Below are positions 8,005 to 28,605 of a DNA stretch of 56,171 bases, piece after piece. Every line of letters starts with the position of its first letter. Position 1 is the stretch's first letter. A model generated the notes under the pieces. It saw only the letters and a program-made list of their open reading frames with translations, searched no databases and was not told the origin of the DNA. Source of the stretch: a virus (lineage: Duplodnaviria > Caudoviricetes); the IMG/VR virus record IMGVR_UViG_3300049489_000406, positions 1 to 56,171 of that record, one strand, 5' to 3'. A program made the translations under genes and the position numbers.

Positions 8005-8298
8005 ATGCGTGAAACATTAATAGAGCAGTATCTTAAAAAGCGAATTAAAGAAATTGGTGGGAAAGCCCTTAAGTTTGTCTCCCCTGGGCATTCGGGCGTT
8101 CCAGATCGCATATGCTTGCTACCACTGGGCGGTTTTGTATTCGTAGAAGCTAAATCACCCACAGGCAAAACGTCAGCACTCCAAGAGGTAACATTTAAAG
8201 AGTTTGAACGCTTGGGGCATTTTGTACATATAGTGCGATCTAAAGCTGATGTAGATTTCTTAGTAAGTGTGCTGAAAGACGCGTTAAATGATATTTAA
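8005..8298 (+). CDS. VRR-NUC domain nuclease
   Basis: MRE..IE; KFVSPG..GVPDR; FVEAK...LQ. Confidence 0.92.
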   Translation: MRETLIEQYLKKRIKEIGGKALKFVSPGHSGVPDRICLLPLGGFVFVEAKSPTGKTSALQEVTFKEFERLGHFVHIVRSKADVDFLVSVLKDALNDI

Positions 8299-9640
8299 GC
8301 CCCACGACTATCAAGAAGATGCGCTTATCAGGCTTGAGAAGTGCCAAAGATTAGCCTTGTGGCTGCCAATGGGCGCGGGTAAAACGTCTATAATGCTTCA
8401 TCACATTGCTGCATTGCAAAAAAGGTTTTTAATCGTAGCTCCTACGTCTGTTATGTCTAGCACCTGGCAGAATGAAGCTTTAAAGTTTGACACTTTAAAG
8501 CATTTAACTTTTGAAACACTTCACGGAAAAGATAAAGAGCATCTGTATCTTAACTCTAAAGCTTCATGCTTCTTAATCAATTATGAAGGACTGCCCTGGC
8601 TGTACGATACAATCAAAAAACATAAAAAGATACGATTCAGGGGCATGGTGTTTGACGAGTCCAGCGCGTTGAAATCCCCATCTACCGTGCGTTTTAAAAA
8701 GGTAAGACACTTAGCAGCTAAAGTTGACTACGTATATCTCTTGAGTGCTACCCCCGCGCCAAACTCCGCGCTTGATCTATGGTCGCAATACTATCTGCTC
8801 GATCAGGGCTTGCGACTTGGTAAGTCATTCAGAAACTATAGAGATAAGTACTTTAACGAGCAGGGTTACACTTTTAAAAAGTACACAATCAAACCTGGTG
8901 CATGGGAAGAGATTACATCTGCTGTCGCGGATGTAACATTTAGAATTGACGACTCTCAGCTTACTACAAAGAATAATCTCAACACGGTAAAAGTAGCCTT
9001 TAAGCTTACTCAAAGTGTGAAAGAACACTATGACGAGTTAAAAGATAAGTTAGTGCTTGAGCTTAGAGACACATTGATCACAGCAGTTAACTCTGCCGTA
9101 CTCACATCAAAACTCAGGCAATTCGTATCCGGGTTTCTCTATGACGATGGTGCAGCGCCGCATAAAATCCATGATCTTAGGTATCAAAGGCTTGTAAAAC
9201 TTTTAGGCGGTGAATTATCAGATAAGAACACGCTCATAGCCTACAATTTCAAGTATGAGCTTGCCGCATTGCAGCATTTTATCCCTGATTTAGTGCATCT
9301 GGACTCTCGGCATATGGACAGAAACTCAATTATTGAAGCGTGGAATGCCGGAAAAATAAGGTATTTAGCGTGCAACCCTGCTAGCGTATCCCACGGTTTA
9401 AATCTGCAAGCAGGTGGGCATACTATTGTCTGGCTGAGTCTCACGTTCAGTTTAGAGAAATATCAGCAGCTTATAGGAAGGCTTAACAGACAAGGACAGT
9501 TGCACTCGGTTACTAACTATGTACTCGTCGCCAGTAACACTATAGATGATTACATATTCAGAGCTTTGATAAGCAAAAAGAACGTTCAGGATGTCTTTTT
9601 AAATTTTTTATACGATCTTCAAAAAAACTATTTACATTAG
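8288..9640 (+). CDS. SNF2-like superfamily 2 helicase
   Basis: PHDYQ, MGAGKT, DESS, SATP, HGLNLQ, Q..GRL.RQGQ. Confidence 0.93.
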   Translation: MIFKPHDYQEDALIRLEKCQRLALWLPMGAGKTSIMLHHIAALQKRFLIVAPTSVMSSTWQNEALKFDTLKHLTFETLHGKDKEHLYLNSKASCFLINYEGLPWLYDTIKKHKKIRFRGMVFDESSALKSPSTVRFKKVRHLAAKVDYVYLLSATPAPNSALDLWSQYYLLDQGLRLGKSFRNYRDKYFNEQGYTFKKYTIKPGAWEEITSAVADVTFRIDDSQLTTKNNLNTVKVAFKLTQSVKEHYDELKDKLVLELRDTLITAVNSAVLTSKLRQFVSGFLYDDGAAPHKIHDLRYQRLVKLLGGELSDKNTLIAYNFKYELAALQHFIPDLVHLDSRHMDRNSIIEAWNAGKIRYLACNPASVSHGLNLQAGGHTIVWLSLTFSLEKYQQLIGRLNRQGQLHSVTNYVLVASNTIDDYIFRALISKKNVQDVFLNFLYDLQKNYLH

Positions 9641-12901: not shown

Positions 12902-13704
12902 ATGAGAGCAATTTTACAATCACTTATTTTAACTCAGGTGAGCCTAGGGTTGTGTTTAAAAATAATATACACGTTGATGCGCTAGAAGTTATTAAGTGGG
13001 ACAGCATAAAACATCCAAACCTCATGGTTCCAATACTTATGGCTGATGCTATATCTACTCACACTAGGGTACATTTTCTTAAACCTCTTATCGCAAGTTA
13101 TTTACCGTTCAGTAGACATGATAGGAATTTCGCGGTTGGTGAGTATGCACACATTGACCCAGCTTTAAACGTGCTTGGTAGATACTTTAGCCGCATAAAA
13201 ACGCATGCTTTACATTGTGAAAATAGGTGGGGCAATTTCATAGAAAACGTTTTAATCAATGAGGATAGCGTAGGTTCTCAAAATAAATTGATCATTTATC
13301 CGGATGCTTCGGCGTACAAGCACTATTCAAGAGATAGCAGAAAACCATATTATTTTCTTGAGAAGAAAAGAAATTTAGCCGATGTGGTAATTTCTTCATT
13401 GCAAGAAGATGCTATACGCGCTGCTTGTGCTGTGAATAATTATGAAGAGATACTATTACTTGATGATATTTGCGATGGTGGAAGAACGTTAATCGAATCC
13501 GCAAAATACATTAGAAATAATATTAACAATAGCACACCAATTAGAGCATGTGTATATCACGCATTCCCTACGTTCATAAAAAATAATCTATGGGAGTATG
13601 TAGATAGACTTTACGTTATTAATGCAGATTCATACAACAGTCTCATTGGTTTATCAGATATACCTAGTAACTTTTTACATAAAATAGAGGATGATCTATG
13701 CTAG
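12895..13704 (+). CDS. Ribose-phosphate pyrophosphokinase-like protein (probable NARP1 ADPR-PP synthetase, Adps)
   Basis: F.SGE, YLPFSRHDR, YPDASA, LLDDICDGGRT PRTase motif; AGGAG RBS; overlaps the NAMPT-like gene. Confidence 0.8.
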   Translation: MLDESNFTITYFNSGEPRVVFKNNIHVDALEVIKWDSIKHPNLMVPILMADAISTHTRVHFLKPLIASYLPFSRHDRNFAVGEYAHIDPALNVLGRYFSRIKTHALHCENRWGNFIENVLINEDSVGSQNKLIIYPDASAYKHYSRDSRKPYYFLEKKRNLADVVISSLQEDAIRAACAVNNYEEILLLDDICDGGRTLIESAKYIRNNINNSTPIRACVYHAFPTFIKNNLWEYVDRLYVINADSYNSLIGLSDIPSNFLHKIEDDLC

Positions 13705-15173
13705 TAAATAACCCATTAATGCTTACTGATTTTTATAAGACTGGGCATATTAAACAGTATCCTCCAGGCACCACGCTTATATACTCTAACATGACCGCGA
13801 GGGATGATAAGTATACAATTTGCAATGAATCACCACTATATAATCATAAAGTGATTATGTTTGGTTTACATCATTTCATCTCTTTACTTAAAAATGAGCT
13901 TGACTCAATGAATTATAGAATGGCAGACGTGTATATGGATTTGGTTAAAGAAAGCACAGGAGTAGATCTAAACCCAAAAGATTACTACCGTTTACTTACT
14001 ATCAGTGGCATACCTTTGGAAATTAAAGGGTTTGAAGAAGGTGAGCTTGTTCCTGTAGGCATTCCATTGATAACTGTTCAGAACACGAATACGTCATTTT
14101 TTTGGCTCACCAATTTTATAGAAACCTGGATGAGTTCAGAAATTTGGAAGTGCATCAACAACGCAACAATAGCTTATGAGTACAAGAAGCTATTTACATA
14201 CTACGCCATGCAAACATGCGACACTATCGATCACGTAGACTTCCAAGGGCATGATTTTAGCTTTCGAGGAATGTCTGGCGCAGATGATGCTATTCTAAGC
14301 GGATTGGCTCATTTGACATGCTTCAAAGGCACCGACACGCTTCCTGCTATATATTACGGGAAAGTGTTGTACGGAAAAGATGTGACAGGGTACAGCATTC
14401 CCGCGACCGAGCATTCTGTAATGAGCGCTTACGGAGAAGATAACGAGCTTGAAACTTTTAGACATCTTATTAACGATGTCTACCCTTCTGGCTTAGTGTC
14501 CATCGTTAGTGACACTTGGGATTTTTGGCGTGTTATGAATGACTACTTGTCTATCCTCAAGGATGACATCCTAAAGCGTGAGGGTAAAGTAGTATTCCGA
14601 CCAGATAGCGGCAATCCTGCTGATATTGTTTGCGGCACAGCAACAGAAATTGGTGCTATTGAAGCCCTAGCTAATGTTTTTGGATTTAGTACGAACAGTA
14701 AGGGCTATAAAGAGCTAAACCCAAAAGTAGGACTGATCTACGGCGATGGAATCACAATTAAAACAGTCATTGACATACTCGAGAGATTAAAAGCCAAAGG
14801 CTGGGCGTCTAATAATATTGTCTTCGGTATTGGATCGTATACGTACCAGTACAGCACACGTGATAGCTTTTCTTTCGCTATGAAATCTACTTACACTGAA
14901 AGAGACGGCAAAGGGTATGAAATTTTCAAAAGCCCTAAAACTGGACAGTACAAAAAGTCCGCACGTGGTTTGATACGAGTCGATAAAAATGATAACGGAG
15001 AATTCACTTTTACTGATAGAGTGTCCAGGGGTGAGGAGCTAAAAACTTACTTAACTACGTATTTAAGCAAATACGGAATACAATACGATCACTCATTTAC
15101 AAGCATAAGAGATAAGATCAATGAAAACATACAAAAAGAGTTAAGCAATGCTGGAAAAGATAGTAATATTTGA
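13698..15173 (+). CDS. Nicotinamide phosphoribosyltransferase-like protein (probable NARP1 Namat)
   Basis: TDFYKTGH..QYP, HDFSFRGM, FKGTDT, SIPATEHSVM, VSDTWD, RPDSG, IYGDGIT. Confidence 0.92.
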   Translation: MLVNNPLMLTDFYKTGHIKQYPPGTTLIYSNMTARDDKYTICNESPLYNHKVIMFGLHHFISLLKNELDSMNYRMADVYMDLVKESTGVDLNPKDYYRLLTISGIPLEIKGFEEGELVPVGIPLITVQNTNTSFFWLTNFIETWMSSEIWKCINNATIAYEYKKLFTYYAMQTCDTIDHVDFQGHDFSFRGMSGADDAILSGLAHLTCFKGTDTLPAIYYGKVLYGKDVTGYSIPATEHSVMSAYGEDNELETFRHLINDVYPSGLVSIVSDTWDFWRVMNDYLSILKDDILKREGKVVFRPDSGNPADIVCGTATEIGAIEALANVFGFSTNSKGYKELNPKVGLIYGDGITIKTVIDILERLKAKGWASNNIVFGIGSYTYQYSTRDSFSFAMKSTYTERDGKGYEIFKSPKTGQYKKSARGLIRVDKNDNGEFTFTDRVSRGEELKTYLTTYLSKYGIQYDHSFTSIRDKINENIQKELSNAGKDSNI

Positions 15174-15600
15174 CTTAGATGGAACCCTTAGTGACGACTC
15201 ACACAGAGAACACCACATAAGGAATCATCCTCAGAATTGGGAAGAGTACAACAAACACCAATTGCTTGATCCACCAAACATAGCAATTACCAAGATGTTT
15301 GAGGTGTTTTTGCACTCCAAATCTATTAAGCCAGTAATAATAACTGGTAGAACAGAAAGATACAGGAATAAAACTGTTGAATGGATTAAAAAGCATATTA
15401 ATTTAGGTGATTCATTTCCTGACCTGTTTATGAAACACAATGATGATTTTAGAACTGGGCACTTCTTTAAAAGGGAAACAGTGGAGAAATTAATGATAAA
15501 TCACGATGTTCTTTTTGTTGTTGATGATAGGGACAGCGCGGTGAAAATGTGGAGGGATGAAGGATTTACCTGTCTTCAATGTAGGTATGGCGATTTTTAA
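15148..15600 (+). CDS. HAD phosphatase, T4 PseT/PNKP 3'-phosphatase-like
   Basis: FDLDGTL, TGR.E, FK, DDR...V.MWR..G..CLQ...GDF. Confidence 0.9.
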   Translation: MLEKIVIFDLDGTLSDDSHREHHIRNHPQNWEEYNKHQLLDPPNIAITKMFEVFLHSKSIKPVIITGRTERYRNKTVEWIKKHINLGDSFPDLFMKHNDDFRTGHFFKRETVEKLMINHDVLFVVDDRDSAVKMWRDEGFTCLQCRYGDF

Positions 15601-15638
15601 AAATGAGAAGAACGAAAACATACAAAAGGAGTTAAGCA

Positions 15639-15890
15639 ATGAACGAGAGTAAAAAGTGGCTAGAACTGGTACAGAAACAGGAAAAAAGATTTAAGAATGC
15701 GGTCAATAGTGTTATTTCTCAGATAAATAAATCTTATTTTGAGGAATTGGAATCAGTGCCTGAAAAGTTTAGTGTAGATTATATTTTATTGAACGCATAT
15801 CTTCACGCTTATGACTTCCATGACGACTTCATTAATAACTATGTACCTACGGATTTACGCGAAAGTGTAAAAAAGTGTTTAACTATTTAA
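15639..15890 (+). CDS. Hypothetical protein, paralogue of 12605..12901
   Basis: AGGAG RBS; shared motifs. Confidence 0.65.
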   Translation: MNESKKWLELVQKQEKRFKNAVNSVISQINKSYFEELESVPEKFSVDYILLNAYLHAYDFHDDFINNYVPTDLRESVKKCLTI

Positions 15891-15906
15891 CTTTTAGTGT
15901 TATACT
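15878..15906 (+). promoter_or_regulatory. Probable extended -10 promoter upstream of rtcB
   Basis: TGTTATACT, then ATGTATTGAAA as found downstream of the 9.6-kb promoter. Confidence 0.5.
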
Positions 15907-15933
15907 AGATGTATTGAAACTTTAAGAAGTACA

Positions 15934-17139
15934 GTGATGAAAACTGTAGAGATCATAGAAGGTTTTAATGGCGGCATGGCTAAAGCGTGGATTAAGTACG
16001 TTCCACTCGATGGAAACGCTATTGAGCAAGTGCGCCAAACTTCTGACCTTCCTTTTATTTTTAAGCATGTAGCGGTAATGCCTGATGCGCATTACGGTGT
16101 GGGAAGCACAGTAGGCAGTGTAATACCTACAAAAAATGCAATTATTCCTGCGGCTGTAGGAGTAGATATAGGGTGCGGCATGATTGCAGCTAGGCTTTCA
16201 ATTAGTGCATCTAATCTGCCAGACAACTTGGCTGAGATGAGATCGCGCATAGAGTCTACCGTACCCACGGGATTTTCTAATTTCAAAGAACCTCAAAATA
16301 CAGCTATAAACCGTTGGAGCAGTGATTTATCTTTAAATTTCAATAAGTTTATAGCTAATTCAGTGCCAGGAGCTGATGAGAAGATATGCTTAAACCAATT
16401 GGGTACGCTAGGATCAGGCAATCACTTCATTGAGCTATGCATTGATGAAGAGCAGAGGGTGTGGATTATGCTGCACTCGGGGTCGAGAGGCATAGGCAAT
16501 AAGATAGGATCGCACTATATCAGTCTTGCAAAGACTGAGATGGATCGCCTTGGTATAAAATTGCCCAGTGAGAATTTATCCTACTTTACAAAAGAATCTC
16601 AGCACTTTGATGATTACTTTAACGCTGTCTTCTGGGCGCAAGAATACGCAAAGACTAACAGAGAAATTATGCTATTTAATACGCTAAATGCGGTACGTAA
16701 ATTTGTAAAGAATCCGCATCTAGCGGTTGAAGATTTTTGTGTTCAGTGTCATCACAATTATGTCTCTTTAGAGACACACTTCAATGAAGAGGTATACATA
16801 ACGAGAAAAGGCGCTATAAAAGCTGACAAAGGCGTGTACGGGATCATACCTGGGAGCATGGGTGCAAAATCTTTTATCGTGAAGGGCTTAGGCAATGAGG
16901 AAAGTTTTTGTAGCTGCTCCCACGGGGCTGGCAGAGTTATGTCAAGGGGTGAGGCTAAGAAGCTAATAGATTTAGATGATCACGAGCGCGATACTCAAGG
17001 TGTTGAGTGCAAAAAGGATATGTCTGTCATTGATGAAAGCCCGAGAGCCTACAAAAATATCGATTCAGTCATGAAATCCCAAGAGGACCTGGTAGAAATT
17101 GTGCATACGCTAAAACAGGTTTTGTGCGTTAAGGGTTAA
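15934..17139 (+). CDS. rtcB: RtcB RNA ligase
   Basis: MPDAH, AVGVDIGCGM, GTLGSGNHFIE, HSGSRG, HHNY, RKGA, IPGSMG, SCSHGAGR, DESP.AYK. Confidence 0.97.
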   Translation: MMKTVEIIEGFNGGMAKAWIKYVPLDGNAIEQVRQTSDLPFIFKHVAVMPDAHYGVGSTVGSVIPTKNAIIPAAVGVDIGCGMIAARLSISASNLPDNLAEMRSRIESTVPTGFSNFKEPQNTAINRWSSDLSLNFNKFIANSVPGADEKICLNQLGTLGSGNHFIELCIDEEQRVWIMLHSGSRGIGNKIGSHYISLAKTEMDRLGIKLPSENLSYFTKESQHFDDYFNAVFWAQEYAKTNREIMLFNTLNAVRKFVKNPHLAVEDFCVQCHHNYVSLETHFNEEVYITRKGAIKADKGVYGIIPGSMGAKSFIVKGLGNEESFCSCSHGAGRVMSRGEAKKLIDLDDHERDTQGVECKKDMSVIDESPRAYKNIDSVMKSQEDLVEIVHTLKQVLCVKG

Positions 17140-21354: not shown

Positions 21355-22071
21355 ATGAGAGAAAAGATTATAGCGACAGATGATACGATCCACGACATTG
21401 TTAGGCGCGAGATAGAGATAGTCGGAAATGATGGAGATTTGAACCACATCGATACGAGTCGGGTGACGAATATGTCAAGACTTTTTCAATACGTGGGGGA
21501 TTTTAACTGTGATATATCGAAATGGGACACCTCTAGGGTTACTACTATGCGTTTTATGTTTAAGGAGTGCTACGCATTTAATCAACCCATTGGTAATTGG
21601 GATACTTCTAATGTCTCCGATATGTACTGTATGTTCTCCGAATGTTTTAACTTTAATCGGGATATTTCGAAGTGGGATACCTCTAAAGTTAAAGATATGC
21701 GTTGGATGTTTTATAGGTGTTCTTCATTTAATCAACCCATTGGTGGTTGGGACACATCTAAAGTTACTGATATGCTCGCGATGTTCGATGGGTGCAAATC
21801 ATTTAATCAACCCATTGGTGGTTGGGACACATCTAAAGTTACTGATATGCGCTTCATGTTTAATGTGTGCTATTTCTTTAATCAAGACATCTCGAAATGG
21901 GATACTTCTAAGGTTACCGATATGGGCGCCATGTTTTATGGGTGCTCATCATTTAATCAAGACATCTCGAAATGGGATACTTCTAAGGTTACCAGTATGT
22001 GCTGGATGTTTAAATACAGCATCAAAATGGAAGAGAAAAACAAACCAAAATTTACCAACCAGGGGGATTAG
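21355..22071 (+). CDS. DUF285/BspA-like leucine-rich repeat protein
   Basis: Seven 25-aa [25 protein letters not shown] repeats. Confidence 0.92.
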
Positions 22072-22074
22072 AAA

Positions 22075-23511
22075 ATGAGACCGAGGATTATCGCTACAGA
22101 TGATACGATCCATGAAATCGTCAGACATGAGATAGAGATAGTCGGAAATGATGGAGACCTGAACCATATTGATACGAGTCAAGTCACGGATATGTCAGGA
22201 CTTTTTGAAGACTTGGAAGATTTTAACTGTGACATATCGAAATGGAACACATCTAAAGTTATTACTACGCAGCGTATGTTTTGGGGTTGCTCTTCATTTA
22301 ATCAAGATATTTCAAAGTGGGATACCTCTAATGTTACCGATATGTGTGGGATGTTTCATGGATGCCATTCATTCAATCAAGACCTATCGAAGTGGAACAC
22401 GCCTAAAGTTACTAATATGAGTTCGATGTTTAGTGAATGCAGCTCATTCAATCAAGACTTATCTAAATGGGATACTTCTAATGTCACTACTATCGCTGCA
22501 ATGTTCGAATGGTGCTCTTCATTTAACCAAGACCTGTCGAAGTGGGACACTTCTAAAGTTACGGATAAGCTATGGATGTTTTTCAGATGCGACAAAATGG
22601 AAGAGAAAAACAAGCCTAAGTTTAACAACCTTGAGGAGCAAAAAATGAGACCAAGGATTATAGCGACAGATTATACTATCCACGACATTGTTAGACGTGA
22701 AACAAGAATAGTTGGGAACAATGGGGATTTGAACCATATTGATACGAATCAAGTCACGAATATGTCAGGACTTTGTGAACATCTGAGATATTTTAACTGT
22801 GATATATCGAAATGGGATACCTCTAATGTTTCCGATATGAGTAGAATGTTCTACGGATGCTTATCATTTAATCAAGACATCTCAAAGTGGGATACCTCTA
22901 AAGTTACAGATATGACCTTTATGTTTTGTGAGTGTTTATCATTTAATCAAGACCTGTCGAAATGGGATACCTCTAAAGTTACTGATATGGGATGTATGTT
23001 TGATAGGTGTTCTTTATTTAATCAACCTATTGGCAATTGGAATACATCTAATGTCACTGTTATGAGATATATGTTTGATGAGTGTCGCTCATTCAATCAA
23101 GACCTCTCCAAGTGGAACACGTCTAAAGTTACTGATATGCGCGGGATGTTTAGTAGATGCTTTTTATTCAATCAAGACCTCTCCAAGTGGAACACGTCTA
23201 AAGTTACTTATAAGTGCTCGATGTTTGACGACTGCGACAAAATGGAAGACAAAAACAAACCAAAATTTACCAACCAAGAGGAACAAAAAATGAAACGACA
23301 ATACACTAAAAGAACAAAGGATGAGAAAGTCACACGTCTTATCCTATGTGTTGAGAAATTGATGACTAAAAGGGATGTCATTAATGGTAAAATACAATCC
23401 ATCAACGAAAAAATAGCAAAGATTAAACATGGAAAGTTTAATAAACTGATAGGTGGTTTAACGGACGATCAGAAACAAATGATAGTGAAATACATCGAGG
23501 ATAGGTTTTAA
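22075..23511 (+). CDS. Tandem DUF285/BspA units fused in frame to a coiled-coil domain
   Basis: Two units (5 and 6 repeats); internal RBS+ATG at 22645 and 23290. Confidence 0.88.
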   Translation: MRPRIIATDDTIHEIVRHEIEIVGNDGDLNHIDTSQVTDMSGLFEDLEDFNCDISKWNTSKVITTQRMFWGCSSFNQDISKWDTSNVTDMCGMFHGCHSFNQDLSKWNTPKVTNMSSMFSECSSFNQDLSKWDTSNVTTIAAMFEWCSSFNQDLSKWDTSKVTDKLWMFFRCDKMEEKNKPKFNNLEEQKMRPRIIATDYTIHDIVRRETRIVGNNGDLNHIDTNQVTNMSGLCEHLRYFNCDISKWDTSNVSDMSRMFYGCLSFNQDISKWDTSKVTDMTFMFCECLSFNQDLSKWDTSKVTDMGCMFDRCSLFNQPIGNWNTSNVTVMRYMFDECRSFNQDLSKWNTSKVTDMRGMFSRCFLFNQDLSKWNTSKVTYKCSMFDDCDKMEDKNKPKFTNQEEQKMKRQYTKRTKDEKVTRLILCVEKLMTKRDVINGKIQSINEKIAKIKHGKFNKLIGGLTDDQKQMIVKYIEDRF

Positions 23512-24377
23512 TGTCAAAAATAGTAAATGCTGACGTGATAGAAACGCTTACTACATTAAACATAACGAACTATTTTGACGTAATTATTGCAGACCCTCCA
23601 TACAACATAAATAAAAATTTTGGGGTAGGTTCTGATTCGGTTCCTTTACCTGATTACATTGATTGGTCAAAACACTGGATTGATCTTTGTCTTAAGTCAT
23701 TAAAACCTAACGGTATAATGTATATCTATGGATTCACTGAAATACTTGCGCACATCGCCGTAAACTATCCGTTGGGCAAACAACGGTTTTTGATATGGAG
23801 TTACCTGAATAAGGTAGCTCCAAATTCTAAGTTTTGGCAGAGGTCGCACGAGGCTATACTGTGCCTTTGGATAGATAAAAAACCCGCGCTAGAGATAGAT
23901 CAAATACGTGAGCCATACTCTAAAGGGTACGCTAATGCGCACGGTAAAGAAAGAAAAAGTACTAAAGGGCGTTTTGGTTCTAAGGCAACTGTATATAATG
24001 TGAACCCACTAGGTGCGATGCCGAGAGATGTTATAAGAGTACCTGCTTTAGCTGGAAAATCATCAGAGAGACCTTTTATGTGTAGAACCTGCGGAGGCGT
24101 TATGTATGATTCTGAGTATTTAAAAAGCCATCTCGGACATAGCATTTTACAACATCCAACACAAAAACCAGCAGAGCTTACAAAAAGACTTTTACTATCG
24201 GCAGCTAAACCTACGCGCGGAAAAGTACTAATACCTTTTTCGGGTTCGGGTTCTGAGTGCTTAGTAGCCAAAAGTTTAGGCTTTGAATTTTTAGGGGTAG
24301 AGCTAAACTGGGAATATGTAACCTACGCAGAAAATCTAATAAGGAGAAATAATGGACTTGCAAGCAGCGTCATTTGA
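23511..24377 (+). CDS. Orphan N4-cytosine/N6-adenine DNA methyltransferase (beta-type order)
   Basis: ADPPYN, then HPTQKP and PFSGSGS. Confidence 0.92.
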   Translation: MSKIVNADVIETLTTLNITNYFDVIIADPPYNINKNFGVGSDSVPLPDYIDWSKHWIDLCLKSLKPNGIMYIYGFTEILAHIAVNYPLGKQRFLIWSYLNKVAPNSKFWQRSHEAILCLWIDKKPALEIDQIREPYSKGYANAHGKERKSTKGRFGSKATVYNVNPLGAMPRDVIRVPALAGKSSERPFMCRTCGGVMYDSEYLKSHLGHSILQHPTQKPAELTKRLLLSAAKPTRGKVLIPFSGSGSECLVAKSLGFEFLGVELNWEYVTYAENLIRRNNGLASSVI

Positions 24378-26229
24378 CGTGTGGAAACAAAAATATCAAT
24401 TAAAAGATGAGCACGGCACAGCAATAGACAAAGATGTTGATAGCATGTTCCAGAGAGTAGCTAAAACCCTCGCAAGCGTAGAATCTAATAGTGAACACTG
24501 GTATGAGCGCTTTTTGTGGGCGATGAGACGCGGCGCGTACCCTGCTGGTAGAATACTAGCTAATGCGGGTGCCCAGGGGTATAAGCCCAACACAACACTC
24601 ATTAACTGTACAGTGAGTCGTGTTATAGATGACTCCATTGAGGGTATAATGCTAGCACTGTCAGAAGCTGCAAGCACACTTAAAACAGGCGCTGGGATAG
24701 GGTATGACTTCTCCACTCTGCGACCTAAAGGTGCATACGTACGCGGTGCAGGTGCGAAAACATCCGGATCACTATCGTTTATGGACATATTCGATAAGAT
24801 GTGTTTTACAATCTCATCAGCAGGAGGCAGGCGCGGCGCTCAGATGGCTACAATGCGTGTAGACCATCCCGACATCATAGATTTTATTAAAGCTAAAAGA
24901 GAAAACGGGCGCTTAAGACAGTTTAATATGTCAGTGTTAGTTACAGATAGCTTTATGCACGCTGTAGATACCGATCTTGACTGGCAACTGTGTTTTGCGG
25001 GTAAAGTGTATAAAACAGTTAAAGCCTGTGACCTCTGGGATTTGATTATGCGTTCAACGTATGACTATGCGGAGCCAGGGGTGCTTTTTATAGACAGGAT
25101 CAATGAAGGGAACCCCCTTGGGTTTATTGAGCAGATAACTGCTACGAACCCGTGCGCGGAGCAGCCATTACCCCCTAATGGCGCGTGTCTTTTGGGTTCA
25201 GTAGACCTTACAAAATTTGTCAGATACCCTTTTTCAGATGATGCCGTTTTTAACTATGAAGATTTTATAGAAGTAGTTTCGGTGTTTGCACGTATGCTAG
25301 ATAACGTTGTAGATATAAACAACCTCCCCCTTGAGTCTCAGCGACAAGAAATCATGATGAAACGCAGGCACGGCATGGGGTTTTTGGGTTTAGGTTCCGC
25401 ATTGACTATGCTAAAAATAAAGTACGGATCACCTGAGGCGATACGACTTGCACGCACAGTCTCTATAGCGATGGCGCGTACGAATTACGAGACCGGTGTA
25501 GACCTGGCTTATGAAAAGGGTGCTGCTCCGATATTGAAAGATGAAAACAACTTAAAAAACTATGTCGACAGAATAAAAAAACTCGGTTACGTAAATGATG
25601 ACTATCTAAGAAAAATGGAAGCGTGGGGGTGCAGATACACACATGCAACATCTATAGCCCCTACGGGCACTCTATCCCTGTCCGTGGGAAACAATGTGAG
25701 CAATGGCATAGAGCCTACATTTTGTCACGAGTATGCTAGAAACGTCATCATAGATGGGAAGAAAACAAAAGAAAAAGTTAACGTTCTATCTTATGAGTAC
25801 CTGCGATACAAATCTATGCATCCTGAGGCTACTGTAGATACGCTGCCCGATTATTTTGTTACCTCAGATAGCATAACGCCCGAGCAGCATGTAGATATGC
25901 AAGCAGCGTGTCAGCCATCTATAGATTCTAGTATATCAAAAACAATTAACGTCCCCACTGATATAAGCTTTGATGCTTTTAAAGACATATACCGCTATGC
26001 TTTTAGTAAAGGGTTGAAAGGATGCACCACATTTAGATTTAATCCTGAGGCTTTTCAGGGGGTACTGGTTAAAGAATCTGATCTAAAAAACACTATTTAC
26101 AACTTCAAACTCGAAAATGGTGAGACGGTATCATGTACGGGCGACACAATAATTACGTATGACGGAGAGAATCACACAGCAGCAAATCTATACGATGCTA
26201 TTAAGGAAGGTTACTATGGTAAATTCTAA
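24352..26229 (+). CDS. nrdJa: Class II (B12-dependent) ribonucleotide reductase, NrdJa subunit
   Basis: NC, GGRRGAQM, TNPCAEQPL, SIAPTGT, ISKTINVP, KGCTTFR; C-terminus HTAANLYDAIKEGYYGKF. Confidence 0.92.
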   Translation: MDLQAASFDVWKQKYQLKDEHGTAIDKDVDSMFQRVAKTLASVESNSEHWYERFLWAMRRGAYPAGRILANAGAQGYKPNTTLINCTVSRVIDDSIEGIMLALSEAASTLKTGAGIGYDFSTLRPKGAYVRGAGAKTSGSLSFMDIFDKMCFTISSAGGRRGAQMATMRVDHPDIIDFIKAKRENGRLRQFNMSVLVTDSFMHAVDTDLDWQLCFAGKVYKTVKACDLWDLIMRSTYDYAEPGVLFIDRINEGNPLGFIEQITATNPCAEQPLPPNGACLLGSVDLTKFVRYPFSDDAVFNYEDFIEVVSVFARMLDNVVDINNLPLESQRQEIMMKRRHGMGFLGLGSALTMLKIKYGSPEAIRLARTVSIAMARTNYETGVDLAYEKGAAPILKDENNLKNYVDRIKKLGYVNDDYLRKMEAWGCRYTHATSIAPTGTLSLSVGNNVSNGIEPTFCHEYARNVIIDGKKTKEKVNVLSYEYLRYKSMHPEATVDTLPDYFVTSDSITPEQHVDMQAACQPSIDSSISKTINVPTDISFDAFKDIYRYAFSKGLKGCTTFRFNPEAFQGVLVKESDLKNTIYNFKLENGETVSCTGDTIITYDGENHTAANLYDAIKEGYYGKF

Positions 26230-26533
26230 ATACTCTAGACTTGTTGACATCTACTCATCGATTAGAGAGCAAGATTTTAACAAGCTTTTATACGGCAGAA
26301 ATTTTAGTGAGCAGTCGGTTATTATCCTAAGAAAAATAATACTAGACAAGCAGTGTCAAAAAATCGTTGCTAAACAGTACGGCGTGTCTCAGGCTTTTAT
26401 AAGCGGTTTAATTTCAAGATTCATAAGGGCTAAAATGTTCAAATGCGAAACGTGCGGACGTGTTTTTTTGCGATCATGTAACTTATCAGCCCACGTTAAG
26501 ACTTGCAAAAGGAGCCAAAGTGATGATTATTGA
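26216..26533 (+). CDS. TrfB/KorA-like HTH protein with a C-terminal C2HC zinc finger
   Basis: QKIVAKQYGVSQAFIS HTH; FKCETCGRVFLRSCNLSAHVKTC; AAGGAAGG RBS. Confidence 0.65.
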   Translation: MVNSKYSRLVDIYSSIREQDFNKLLYGRNFSEQSVIILRKIILDKQCQKIVAKQYGVSQAFISGLISRFIRAKMFKCETCGRVFLRSCNLSAHVKTCKRSQSDDY

Positions 26534-27023
26534 TAGTAAAATAGTTTCTGTTAGCGTTAACTCTAACGAGTGCAGTAGTACTTTAACTGTAAGACCCGAG
26601 ATGTTACCTGGCGTTACGTACAAAATAAAACCACCAGGTCACAATGATGCGATGTACGTTACAATAAACTCACTAGATAACAAGCCTTTTGAGCTTTTTA
26701 TACAGTCCAAAAATGCAGAGCACACCCAATGGACATCTGCGCTTACCCGTGTGATCTCTGCCATTTTTAGAAAAGGTGGGGATGTAACTTTTCTCATCGA
26801 TGAGCTGAAATCCATACACGATCCGCGAGGCGGTCACTTTGCGCATGAAAAATACGTACCTTCTTTGGTGGCTGAAATTGGGTACGTCTTAGAAAAGCAC
26901 TTAAATCTTAAAAAAGAAGCAAAACCCACAAAAAAGACGTGTCAAAAATGCAATGGTGTAAACGTTGAGGTTTCCGGCGGATGTTCAATATGCAGAGATT
27001 GTGGAGATTCTAAATGCGAATAA
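26520..27023 (+). CDS. nrdJb: NrdJb (TSCPD domain plus C-terminal Zn ribbon)
   Basis: RPE.L.G.TYKIK, YVTIN, PFELF, ALTRVISAIFRKGGD, CQKC...GC..C..CG.SKC. Confidence 0.9.
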   Translation: MMIIDSKIVSVSVNSNECSSTLTVRPEMLPGVTYKIKPPGHNDAMYVTINSLDNKPFELFIQSKNAEHTQWTSALTRVISAIFRKGGDVTFLIDELKSIHDPRGGHFAHEKYVPSLVAEIGYVLEKHLNLKKEAKPTKKTCQKCNGVNVEVSGGCSICRDCGDSKCE

Positions 27024-27487
27024 AGAAGATCATATCTGGCGGACAAACAGGTGTCGACCAAGGGGCTTTGCTCGCAGCTATTGACCTAGGTATTGAGCAC
27101 GGTGGGTACTGCCCTAAAGGGAGGCGTTGCGAGTCCGGCAAGATTCCTGATATTTTCAACCTACAAGAGCTTGACACATATGACTATGCGGCACGTACAG
27201 AGAAAAATATACTAGAGTCTGACGGAACATTGCTTATTACGAAATATCTTTGTGGAAATCAAACTCCAGGGTCACGTCTCACTAAAAAGCTGTGTGCAGC
27301 GCACGGTAAACCTATTCTACATACTTCTGGACTGTTGGCATCCCCTAGTGAAATTATAAAATTTATCAAGGAACATAAAATACAGGTGCTTAATGTCGCA
27401 GGAACAAGAGGGTCAAAATGGGAGGGCGCTGAAAAATTTACAAGAGATTTAATAAAATCAGTGATAAATTTTGAGGAGGTAATATGA
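27014..27487 (+). CDS. SLOG-superfamily 'putative molybdenum carrier' protein
   Basis: IISGGQTGVD, GG.CPKGR, Y..RT..N...SDGTL, LNVAG.R.S. Confidence 0.9.
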   Translation: MRIKKIISGGQTGVDQGALLAAIDLGIEHGGYCPKGRRCESGKIPDIFNLQELDTYDYAARTEKNILESDGTLLITKYLCGNQTPGSRLTKKLCAAHGKPILHTSGLLASPSEIIKFIKEHKIQVLNVAGTRGSKWEGAEKFTRDLIKSVINFEEVI

Positions 27488-27562
27488 TTATTATTAATGG
27501 CTATCGTCCCCGAGACCCTGGAAAAGTGTGGATAACGCAACATATCTTATCGTCTTTTAAAA

Positions 27563-27597
27563 ATTTTCTCCTGCAATACCAAATTGCAGGAGAAAAT
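27563..27597 (+). promoter_or_regulatory. Perfect 15-bp hairpin occluding an RBS
   Basis: ATTTTCTCCTGCAAT-ACCAA-ATTGCAGGAGAAAAT; AGGAG lies in the stem, ATG at 27599. Confidence 0.6.
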
Positions 27598-27616
27598 CAT
27601 GAGACAACACCATCCG

Positions 27617-27872
27617 GAATTCCAGACGCTAAGGGGTATAACCCAGAAGCATCAATCCATCAAGAGCATGACAAATGAATTTTTCTAAGGGCTATCAGCC
27701 CAAACACGCAAAGCCTAACCACGACCCTGACAAAATTTGGATACCGCAGCATATCTTAGCGTTTTTTTAAAAACCAAAATACCGGAGAAAGTCATGAAAC
27801 AACATCATCCAAAAACGTCCAGAATTCCAGATGCTAAGGGGTATAACCCAGAAGCATCAATCCATCAAGAGC
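27617..27872. repeat. 51-bp direct repeat (50/51) within a degenerate ~205-bp tandem duplication
   Basis: GAATTCCAGA(C/T)GCTAAGGGGTATAACCCAGAAGCATCAATCCATCAAGAGC at 27617 and 27822. Confidence 0.9.
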
Positions 27873-27948
27873 CTGACGCTGTCTACGCGGTAAGCCCCCA
27901 ATCACAAAATCTATTTAGAACAGTTGTGGGGCGGCACGAGCGTAAAAC

Positions 27949-28605
27949 GTGTTACTATATATTAAAATTAGAAATTGTAAACGGCTAAACATGATACCCA
28001 TCACCTTATATAACATAGAGCTTTATAGCCACCACTCTTACTACGTGCATAACGTTGTAACCCACAACATATACGAATACCGGTGTGAGACTTGCGGCAA
28101 GACATTCAATTACTTATCCCTATTGACTCGTCACATGTACTCACATAGGACATTACCAAAGCCGTACATATGTCGCGTTTGTAGCGCTGCATTCAGTAAC
28201 CGTGGTAATCTGAATGAGCACATCAGAACGCACATTATGAAAAAAGACTACCAGTGTGTGTACTGCAAGAAATTCTTTACACGCAAACACTATAAAGACG
28301 AGCACGAACGCAGACACTTTGACTCACCAGAGTATGAGTGCGAGCATTGTGGAGAGAAAAAAGCACAGAGTAGCAATTTATACAAGCACATGCGCGAGAA
28401 ACATGGCGTAGAGCCTAAGAAATTCAAGGATGGGGGCGAGATCGCAGGAAGCGATGAAGCGGCGACTAGCCAAGAGAGCACGCATTTGGAGCCAACTGTT
28501 GCACCTGAACCTGCAATCGTTGAAGATGACGACAGCGATCTTGCTATAGCCCATAGTTATGTTAAAGAGCAGCTAGAAAAAGAGAAGAAAGAACACGATG
28601 GATGA
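27949..28605 (+). CDS. Intein-C-like peptide, four tandem C2H2 zinc fingers and an acidic tail
   Basis: LYNIEL...HSYYV.NVVTHN motif, then four C-x2-C-x12-H-x3/4-H fingers. Confidence 0.85.
   Translation: MLLYIKIRNCKRLNMIPITLYNIELYSHHSYYVHNVVTHNIYEYRCETCGKTFNYLSLLTRHMYSHRTLPKPYICRVCSAAFSNRGNLNEHIRTHIMKKDYQCVYCKKFFTRKHYKDEHERRHFDSPEYECEHCGEKKAQSSNLYKHMREKHGVEPKKFKDGGEIAGSDEAATSQESTHLEPTVAPEPAIVEDDDSDLAIAHSYVKEQLEKEKKEHDG

Follow-up and report, generated by a model that had tools for sequence, protein, structure and literature searches.

The leader of a zinc-finger protein encoded by an uncultured, tailed freshwater phage resembles the C-terminal end of Hint-superfamily autoprocessing domains, the group that includes inteins, and it is probably derived from such a domain. 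The gene lies on the plus strand of the IMG/VR record IMGVR_UViG_3300049489_000406, a single linear virus record of 56,171 bases with an estimated completeness of 72%, which was analyzed over its full length and is referred to here as the window. The open reading frame (ORF), 27949-28605, counts 218 amino acids from a GTG codon and comprises the leader, four C2H2 fingers, and an acidic tail. The likeness resides in amino acids 17-40, ends in His-Asn at the finger junction, and is well beyond chance within the window. As a tentative leading explanation, the leader may be a noncatalytic, Hint-derived scar at a module boundary.

Likeness to Hint and Intein C-Termini

A motif of 24 residues may fall below the reporting thresholds of hidden Markov models (HMMs), and for this reason amino acids 17-40 were scored directly against real Hint C-termini. 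The first reference set consists of 22 sequences, three from phage relatives of the NrdJ gene and 19 from 401 bacterial genomes scanned with PF14890; in all of them, His-Asn is followed by Cys, Ser, or Thr. In ungapped BLOSUM62 scoring against eight references picked as diverse, the segment reaches a maximum of 56, with a DECH-box helicase intein, and a mean of 28.4. It ranks first among the 34,196 stop-free 24-mers of the window, where the runners-up score 27 (maximum) and 9.5 (mean), and first among the 26 of these that end in His-Asn. The score was reached by none of 2,000,000 peptides with residues drawn independently from the window composition and by none of 1,000,000 shuffles of the peptide itself. 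Two natural 24-mers from 94 other loci (n = 366,575) reach the maximum, and both are real ribonucleotide reductase (RNR) inteins. The exact tail probability of the position-specific scoring matrix (PSSM) is 5e-9 with the window composition and 6e-8 with the composition of the peptide.

Scanning of the 401 genomes with TIGR01443 marked 23 places in 21 genomes (22.6-42.3 bits), and eight sequences from these that the first set lacks served to replicate the result. Smith-Waterman alignment of amino acids 1-40 with these references gives scores of 34-58. For each of the eight references, no score as high came up in 3000 random window 40-mers, and 0-2 came up in 1500 shuffles. The best four matches (L130, 58; L143, 54; L128, 52; L132, 51) are PT-HINT proteins by Pfam, with PF07591 E-values of 5.8e-13 for L128, 1.3e-08 for L130, and 3e-24 for L132. 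In L128, L132/L143, and L139, His-Asn is followed by Gln, Lys, or Gly, that is, the nucleophile at the residue after the Asn (+1) is lacking. The profile comparison by hhalign of M15-R45 with 33 distinct Hint C-termini yields a probability of 81.2% and an E-value of 1.2e-5 over 22 columns, in register up to the final His-Asn, with a score that 400 random window 31-mers all failed to reach. An HMM that was deliberately softened (eset 3) assigns 11.5 bits to the leader (independent E-value, i-E, 0.025; rank 1 of 1077) and is the only model that places it first. The initial annotation of this DNA had recognized a motif resembling Hint blocks F and G that ends in His-Asn; this recognition is upheld by three statistical tests, the second reference set, hhalign, and, weakly, a complementation fold (see below).

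At the residue level, the penultimate His (G:6) and terminal Asn (G:7), in the nomenclature found in the portion of PMC4031507 consulted, are present as His39-Asn40, in register with the His-Asn of the 33 references. By alignment, Asn22 occupies column F:4, where Asp is usual, as it does in the helicase and PT-HINT references, and His28/29 lies in or beside column F:13, where His is usual. The +1 residue is Ile41, so that the Cys, Ser, or Thr of an intein C-terminal region is absent. A His-Asn end without a +1 nucleophile, placed directly before a different module, is the arrangement of PT-HINT and type A bacterial intein-like (BIL) domains.

Start of the Protein

The gene most likely starts at Met15 (ATG 27991), since a strain variant rejoins the window at this codon, codon usage in the preceding overlap favors the upstream frame, and amino acids 1-16 are not intein-like. 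The stretch is present in other public freshwater metagenome runs, where X1-X3 hold it nearly identically and the pieces found in X2, X3, and X5 are identical to the window. A contig of the run X6, 90-99% alike, carries 27702-27772, then 51 other letters, and then 27991-28097; it replaces 27773-27990, its joint falls exactly at the ATG with no ambiguity, and the upstream ORF 27794-27988 is absent from it. The sole listed variant difference in the leader, 28065 C>T in X6, is synonymous at His39. Elsewhere in X6, positions 28200 and 28206 are synonymous, 28201-28203 changes Arg85 to Lys, and 28621 is synonymous in the next gene. No RNA data are listed as holding the stretch. In the 40-nt overlap with the upstream ORF, the codon log-odds is +0.18 in the frame of that ORF against about -0.3 in the zinc-finger frame, over only 12-14 codons; the first 14 codons counted from GTG score -0.26 in the latter frame.

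The initial annotation had fitted all of the first 40 residues to the length and pattern of the C-half of a split intein (IntC). The pattern stands for amino acids 17-40. It does not hold for amino acids 1-16, including the proposed "IKI" element, which are unlike the strand that real inteins carry ahead of block F (mean, p 0.92; maximum, p 0.37; 2000 shuffles) and which are probably outside the gene. The length also probably fails, because the likeness of X6 resumes at the internal ATG, and the leader is likely to measure 26 amino acids (M15-N40) instead of 40. With this start, the Hint-like 24-mer spans protein residue 3 to the finger junction. A leucine-rich repeat (LRR) reading of amino acids 1-28 was rejected; it derives from 2 matches among 1.84 billion representatives, both NB-ARC/LRR proteins with 5-6 repeated stretches, whose best single stretch scores 25.8 bits and whose E-values are inflated by the repeats, in a region that is probably untranslated.

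Zinc-Finger Protein and Its Relatives

The ORF with its upstream in-frame TAA, the His-Asn at the finger junction, and the Ile at +1 had all been annotated initially and are borne out by the sequence and by Pfam. The zf-C2H2 model (PF00096) matches with an E-value of 2.2e-18 and 66 bits against a cut-off of 25.2, in four stretches whose Cys2His2 ligands are rightly spaced, and His39-Asn40 (28063-28068) stands three residues before the first finger (amino acids 44-66 by Pfam). AlphaFold2 (AF2) predicts a helix at amino acids 196-217 with a predicted local distance difference test (pLDDT) score of about 78. The AF2 model of the whole protein, made without an alignment, has a mean pLDDT of 43 and values below 50 at amino acids 1-41, and it is uninformative. 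A Protein Atlas search with amino acids 1-45 is uninformative as well, returning only zinc-finger clusters with 80-127 of 256 features in common.

The codon log-odds per codon is -0.03 in the finger region (28078-28413), against 0.34 ± 0.13 in the phage's own genes, and 0.475 in the tail, which is like the phage's own genes. Because codon usage is foreign-like in the fingers while native-like in the tail of the same ORF, these values suggest that the C2H2 array is a recent acquisition of eukaryote-like character. The protein would act as a sequence-specific DNA-binding regulator, and since its ORF runs with its stop codon into the ATG of the following gene (28598), it may be expressed and translationally coupled with the lysis genes.

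The zinc-finger gene appears to be an orphan. The same architecture was sought in viral sequences, and no relative of the gene was found in viral_contigs. Among 5.8 billion clustered proteins, the best non-self matches are 35-39% identical and are eukaryote-like finger proteins of insect and metagenomic origin. The alignment with one of these, the metagenomic finger protein P0003, is strong over the fingers only and weak through the leader. A search with region 1-45 for longer proteins gave no candidate. None of 17 terminase relatives of the phage (at most 46% identical) carries the gene or a PT-HINT domain, relatives of the neighboring cpYpsA gene led to 1 distant locus, those of the downstream membrane protein led to 0 loci, and a metagenome scan returned one unrelated, eukaryote-like locus (L224).

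Search for an N-Terminal Partner

Six-frame searches for the N-terminal half of a Hint domain with TIGR01445, PF14890, PF07591, and PF13403 found none in the 56-kb contig, which is 72% complete. The same models were positive in control genomes (TIGR01445 in 7 of 14, PF14890 in 7, PF07591 in 5, and PF13403 in 3; TIGR01443, for the C-terminal end, in 9). A purpose-built, unfiltered HMM of intein N-halves (IntN) reached 6.0 bits at best on the contig (i-E 0.85). The absence of an IntN from the window, noted initially, is confirmed by these scans. A permuted layout with IntC, cargo, and IntN in this order was rejected, as no IntN-like segment follows the fingers; a Thr-Gln-His in the duplicated small ORFs upstream was rejected as block B, as by eye it lacks the T-x-x-H spacing. 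A degraded intein upstream was set aside as a lead, since an HMM of 15 RNR inteins gives a collinear match to the upstream ORF of only 3.2 bits (rank 2 of 539, i-E 2.3). The SNF2-type helicase of the window (8288-9640) is free of inteins and reads DESS at motif II.

Complementation was modeled with ESMFold2 by pairing amino acids 1-45 with the N-part (105 amino acids) of the L116 helicase mini-intein as a stand-in. The score was 0.48 (runs 0.49, 0.48, and 0.48) against 0.05 for the best of three controls, with at least 93% contact agreement among runs and a partner pLDDT of at least 66; the verdict of the tool was weak support. The pLDDT of the N-part was 71-72 with the leader, compared with 40-52 with unrelated partners. 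Of 78 solved complexes, 51 attain the mark of the tool, compared with 2 of 108 mismatched pairs; those attaining it at 0.60 or lower comprise only 5 of the 78 solved complexes and all 4 of the passing mismatches of 180. The fold check with an N-half that had been suggested initially yields a gap over the controls, at a score in a band where passes are often wrong. Because split-intein complexes have already been solved, such a pass may speak for likeness at most and not for binding.

Explanations for the Leader

The explanation held tentatively in first place makes the leader a noncatalytic scar. The gene would encode an orphan phage DNA-binding protein of four C2H2 fingers and an acidic helical tail, starting at ATG 27991, whose 26-residue leader descended from the final motifs, F and G, of an autoprocessing domain belonging to the Hint superfamily. 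The His-Asn end of a Hint domain would be a natural boundary for joining and exchanging payloads, and recombination at this boundary may have joined a zinc-finger array of foreign origin to the final 24 codons of such a domain. The other approximately 100 residues of the fold, with blocks A and B and the Cys1, Thr, and His assisting residues, are missing, and since they are, the leader alone would be unable to fold or cut and would be a scar and not an enzyme. The foreign-looking codon usage of the fingers, beside the native-looking usage of the tail, would fit a graft at a module boundary. The likeness fills the entire leader, from the likely start to the finger.

Several observations weigh against a Hint origin. 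At E ≤ 1, Pfam reports nothing Hint-like in the leader of the peptide. The NCBIfam models, including TIGR01443, give no report at E ≤ 10 on leaders of 44 and 30 amino acids, and a search of 177,635 distinct PDB sequences at E ≤ 10 gives 0 matches to the leader. TIGR01443, TIGR01445, PF14890, PF07591, and PF13403 each have 0 matches in the six-frame contig scans and are silent on the segment, PT-HINT (PF07591) included; the leader does not reach the curated cut-offs of 15.6 bits for TIGR01443 and 35.8 bits for PF14890, so that the HMM check proposed initially came back negative. With default weighting, purpose-built HMMER models give the leader -2.3, -5.9, -4.1, and 2.7 bits (ranks 183 of 855, 862 of 863, 646 of 881, and 10 of 931). 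In a tblastn search of whole inteins against the window, the leader has an E-value of 0.10, and a hit at 26062-26145 (E 0.13) is about as strong; the latter, "block B-like" at first sight, was rejected because it belongs to the usual C-terminal part of NrdJ, with 51-73% identity in every one of the 19 loci of relatives searched. The PSSM p value drops to 1.6e-4 when both helicase-type references and the His-Asn columns are left out. The near-invariant Gly before the last strand, present in 32 of 33 references, is Asn in the leader. Protein, viral-contig, and metagenome searches gave no homologues in which the conservation of His-Asn could be judged. The source's gene call begins at Met97, inside the finger array, and is regarded as a miscall. 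The payload is no toxin and the contig holds no parent Hint gene, so that the analogy with toxin cassettes is architectural only. Finally, the site was picked by the initial reader for its resemblance from approximately 250,000 windows scanned; because of this selection from a very large scan, the within-window expectation of about 2e-4 to 2e-3 overstates the case, and a handful of scan-wide chance matches in ORF leaders is estimated.

On these grounds, namely, the silence of the curated HMMs, the default HMMER scores, the tblastn value beside an equally scoring spurious hit, and the selection of the site, the leader might fit the short Hint F/G pattern by chance, as an AT-rich, beta-prone segment rich in Tyr, His, Asn, and Val. 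The repeat-inflated matches of plant-type LRR proteins at amino acids 1-28 indicate that it easily mimics short motifs. This is judged somewhat unlikely, in view of a segment that is an extreme outlier under four nulls, with replication in an unseen reference set, a hhalign probability of 81% with a score that none of 400 null peptides reached, and a match that exactly fills the space from the likely start to the first finger with His-Asn at the junction; the gap of 0.48 against 0.05 in the fold also disfavors chance. A resemblance of another kind would arise if the leader were a decayed fifth finger, having once been a C2H2 unit and since lost its two cysteines. Counted from Cys46, the 28-residue periodicity does bring Leu25, Tyr31, and His34 into the places of the Phe, Leu, and first His of a finger, His39 lies one residue beyond the canonical second-His position (H-x4-H), and the BLASTP alignment with the metagenomic finger protein extends over amino acids 3-43. 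However, a PSSM built from 47 distinct real finger units yields p values of 0.033 (register 17) and 0.076 (register 16), which become 0.21-0.30 without the ligand columns, compared with 5e-9 for the Hint PSSM, and Pfam calls four fingers, not five; a fifth finger is very improbable.

It is unlikely that the leader is a working, trans-acting Hint C-half, which would dock on an N-half from the missing 28% or so of the phage genome or from the host and free the fingers by cyclization of Asn40; in a type A BIL-like variant, the freed amine would ligate the finger protein to the cargo of the partner without a +1 nucleophile. The putative residues of C-terminal cleavage are in register (His28/29, His39, and Asn40, with Asn22 at F:4), the sole listed leader variant preserves His39, and the contig is only 72% complete, leaving room for a partner. 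The predicted complementation, with its higher pLDDT of the N-part, points the same way, but it lies in a band in which passes are more often wrong than right and may reflect memory of solved split inteins. BIL domains lack a +1 nucleophile, and those of type A, which terminate in His-Asn, are nonetheless able to cleave or splice, as stated in the consulted part of PMC4031507. Against such a half, no partner is found in 56 kb, whereas the halves of fractured genes normally adjoin according to the portion of PMC2677866 consulted; the pre-block F strands of natural IntC are not recognizable here and are probably untranslated; the near-invariant Gly is Asn; and the payload is a complete finger array and not the C-half of a broken gene. 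The trans-triggered switch with a foreign IntN that the initial annotation envisaged receives no direct support, having no partner in the contig, no +1 nucleophile, no homologues, and no curated HMM match. Engineered inteins with very short C-halves exist. In its most specific form, a minimal Hint C-half of about 26 amino acids (blocks F and G only), lacking the +1 nucleophile, would head the finger protein and clip at Asn40 or ligate in BIL style with an N-half from the unsequenced part of the phage or from the host, as a protein-level switch governing the assembly or release of a DNA-binding module in the course of infection; this form is quite unlikely. The scar is considered likelier than a working half because about 100 residues of the fold are absent, no partner is adjacent, and the conserved Gly is lost.

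As a scar, the leader would document, modestly but clearly, the use of Hint-domain ends as recombination joints in phages as elsewhere and the grafting of eukaryote-style C2H2 arrays at such ends, and it would show that Hint remnants of 24 residues escape all curated models. As a half active in trans, it would be shorter than any other natural Hint C-half and the first tied to a DNA-binding payload instead of a broken enzyme, of interest to phage regulation and split-intein engineering.

Gene Neighborhood

The DNA of the window has no match in the phage collection searched, its closest terminase relatives are those of at most 46% identity mentioned above, and by these comparisons the phage is without close relatives. 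The minus strand carries Mu-like baseplate and tail genes, portal, terminase, and capsid. The plus strand carries a replication and nucleotide-metabolism block, and the zinc-finger ORF lies inside it, in the order two NrdJ genes, cpYpsA SLOG gene, tandem duplication with small ORFs, zinc-finger ORF, membrane protein, and Rz-like spanin. The coordinates of the features around the leader are collected in Table 1.

Table 1: Features of the zinc-finger ORF and its upstream region in the window.
Feature	Position	Strand	Basis or remark
cpYpsA SLOG gene	27014-27487	+	
Tandemly duplicated stretch with small ORFs	27484-27988	+	
Upstream 64-aa ORF with GGAG Shine-Dalgarno, second copy of the tandem duplication	27794-27988	+	Stop 2 nt before ATG 27991
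In-frame TAA closing the zinc-finger frame upstream	27943-27945	+	Sequence reading
First 14 codons from GTG, overlapping the end of upstream ORF 27794-27988	27949-27990	+	Probably outside the gene
ATG (Met15), likeliest start codon	27991-27993	+	2 nt after the TAA of the upstream ORF (27986-27988)
Hint/intein block F/G-like segment, 24 codons Pro17-Asn40, ending His39-Asn40	27997-28068	+	Sequence likeness; curated HMMs silent
+1 residue Ile41 (ATA), no Cys/Ser/Thr nucleophile	28069-28071	+	Sequence reading
Four C2H2 fingers, aa 44-66, 73-95, 101-123, and 129-152	28078-28404	+	Pfam; ligands read from the translation
Acidic tail, C-terminal helix, and stop codon	28405-28605	+	Translation; AF2

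The tandem duplication upstream of the gene has a unit of approximately 205-209 bp, with blocks 27514-27672 and 27723-27877 that are 82-86% identical and code for small ORFs. Copy 1 is a single 64-aa ORF (27484-27678) coupled to cpYpsA via ATGA, and copy 2 is split by a 4-nt length difference into two ORFs, 27675-27770 and 27794-27988. A family search of these small ORFs gave no matches. An inverted repeat at 27563-27597, perfect over 15 bp with a 5-nt loop, includes in its 3′ arm the GGAGA ribosome site of ATG 27599; it recalls the hairpins sequestering the ribosome-binding site that are known upstream of phage homing-endonuclease genes, as mentioned in the portion of PMC2677866 consulted. 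Rfam models, run over the whole window, match 0 families, and among them no group I intron.

Positions 24352-26229, 26159-26533, and 26460-27023 hold the class II RNR, encoded in two genes (an NrdJ core and a TSCPD piece), and the gap between these. In relatives, the TSCPD piece was matched in 9 of 19 loci searched, with a gap of about 100-600 nt in 9 of 9 and in another frame than the core in 8 of 9, and the gene split thus appears ordinary. The gap in the window holds a 124-aa ORF with a region like a helix-turn-helix and a single C2H2 finger (weak Pfam matches, E 6e-4 to 6e-3), which would make it a second finger gene within 2 kb. An intein of approximately 370 amino acids after the NPC motif of NrdJ is present in two phage relatives (L012/L016 and L013/L018) and many bacteria; the NrdJ of the window is uninterrupted at that site (about 25155). 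Further upstream, 13698-17139 and 21355-23511 hold what could be a set for NAD salvage and RNA repair, made up of a NAMPT/NAPRTase-like gene, a PNKP-type phosphatase, and an RtcB RNA ligase. Next come two neighboring DUF285 (BspA-like repeat) proteins and then an N6/N4 DNA methylase (23511-24377).

Comparison with Known Systems

The types closest to the leader appear by sequence to be PT-HINT/BIL domains and DECH-box helicase inteins. With PT-HINT and type A BIL domains (PF07591; L128, L130, and L132), it shares the motif (T)-V/L-Y-N-I/L-E-hydrophobic ... H-S/T-F/Y-F/Y-V ... HN, the position of the His-Asn end directly before a different C-terminal module, and a nonnucleophilic +1 residue, which is Gln, Lys, or Gly in several references and Ile in the leader; the lack of a +1 nucleophile in BIL domains is described in the consulted part of PMC4031507. 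It differs from them in that they form a whole domain of about 140 residues with an N-terminal Cys and a T-x-x-H block, whereas only the last 24 residues are found here, in that PF07591 does not score the segment, and in the Asn that replaces the conserved Gly. Among the reference loci, L132 (565-3063) is a bacterial protein in which a Tim44-like domain accompanies three Hint domains in tandem, all with the ending HNKG, L128 and L142 represent a small stand-alone Hint protein present in two tandem copies, with His-Asn followed by Gln, and L139 (739-3069) is a Phage-tail_3 tail protein with a Hint-like domain inserted between Gly runs.

In polymorphic-toxin systems, HINT autopeptidases directly precede variable toxin domains, which are exchanged via standalone cassettes that arise by recombination at the boundary between constant and variable regions, as set out in the consulted part of Zhang et al. 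2012 (PMC3482391). The leader is alike in being the tail of a constant pre-payload region followed by a variable C-terminal module. The payload here is, by contrast, a C2H2 DNA-binding array in the setting of a phage early/lysis operon, and no immunity gene, parent toxin gene, or secretion context was found in the window. The initial annotation had offered the relic of a Hint-toxin cassette as one of its alternatives; a relic fits best, and the closest references are of the PT-HINT/BIL type without a +1 nucleophile, but the toxin part of the proposal fails, as the payload is not one.

The IntC halves of fractured genes, as far as described in the consulted part of Dassa et al. 2009 (PMC2677866), similarly open a phage ORF with the motif and place His-Asn at the junction with the next domain. 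The leader differs in having no +1 Cys, Ser, or Thr, no adjacent IntN gene or homing endonuclease, an "extein" other than the second half of a housekeeping enzyme, and an unrecognizable pre-block F segment. The DECH-box inteins of superfamily 2 helicases (L100, L111, and L116) show the highest ungapped similarity, with a raw BLOSUM62 score of 56 and 8 identities over the last 24 residues, and they share the Asn at the Asp column of block F. They are, in contrast to the leader, complete inteins with Cys1 and Cys+1, located inside a helicase.

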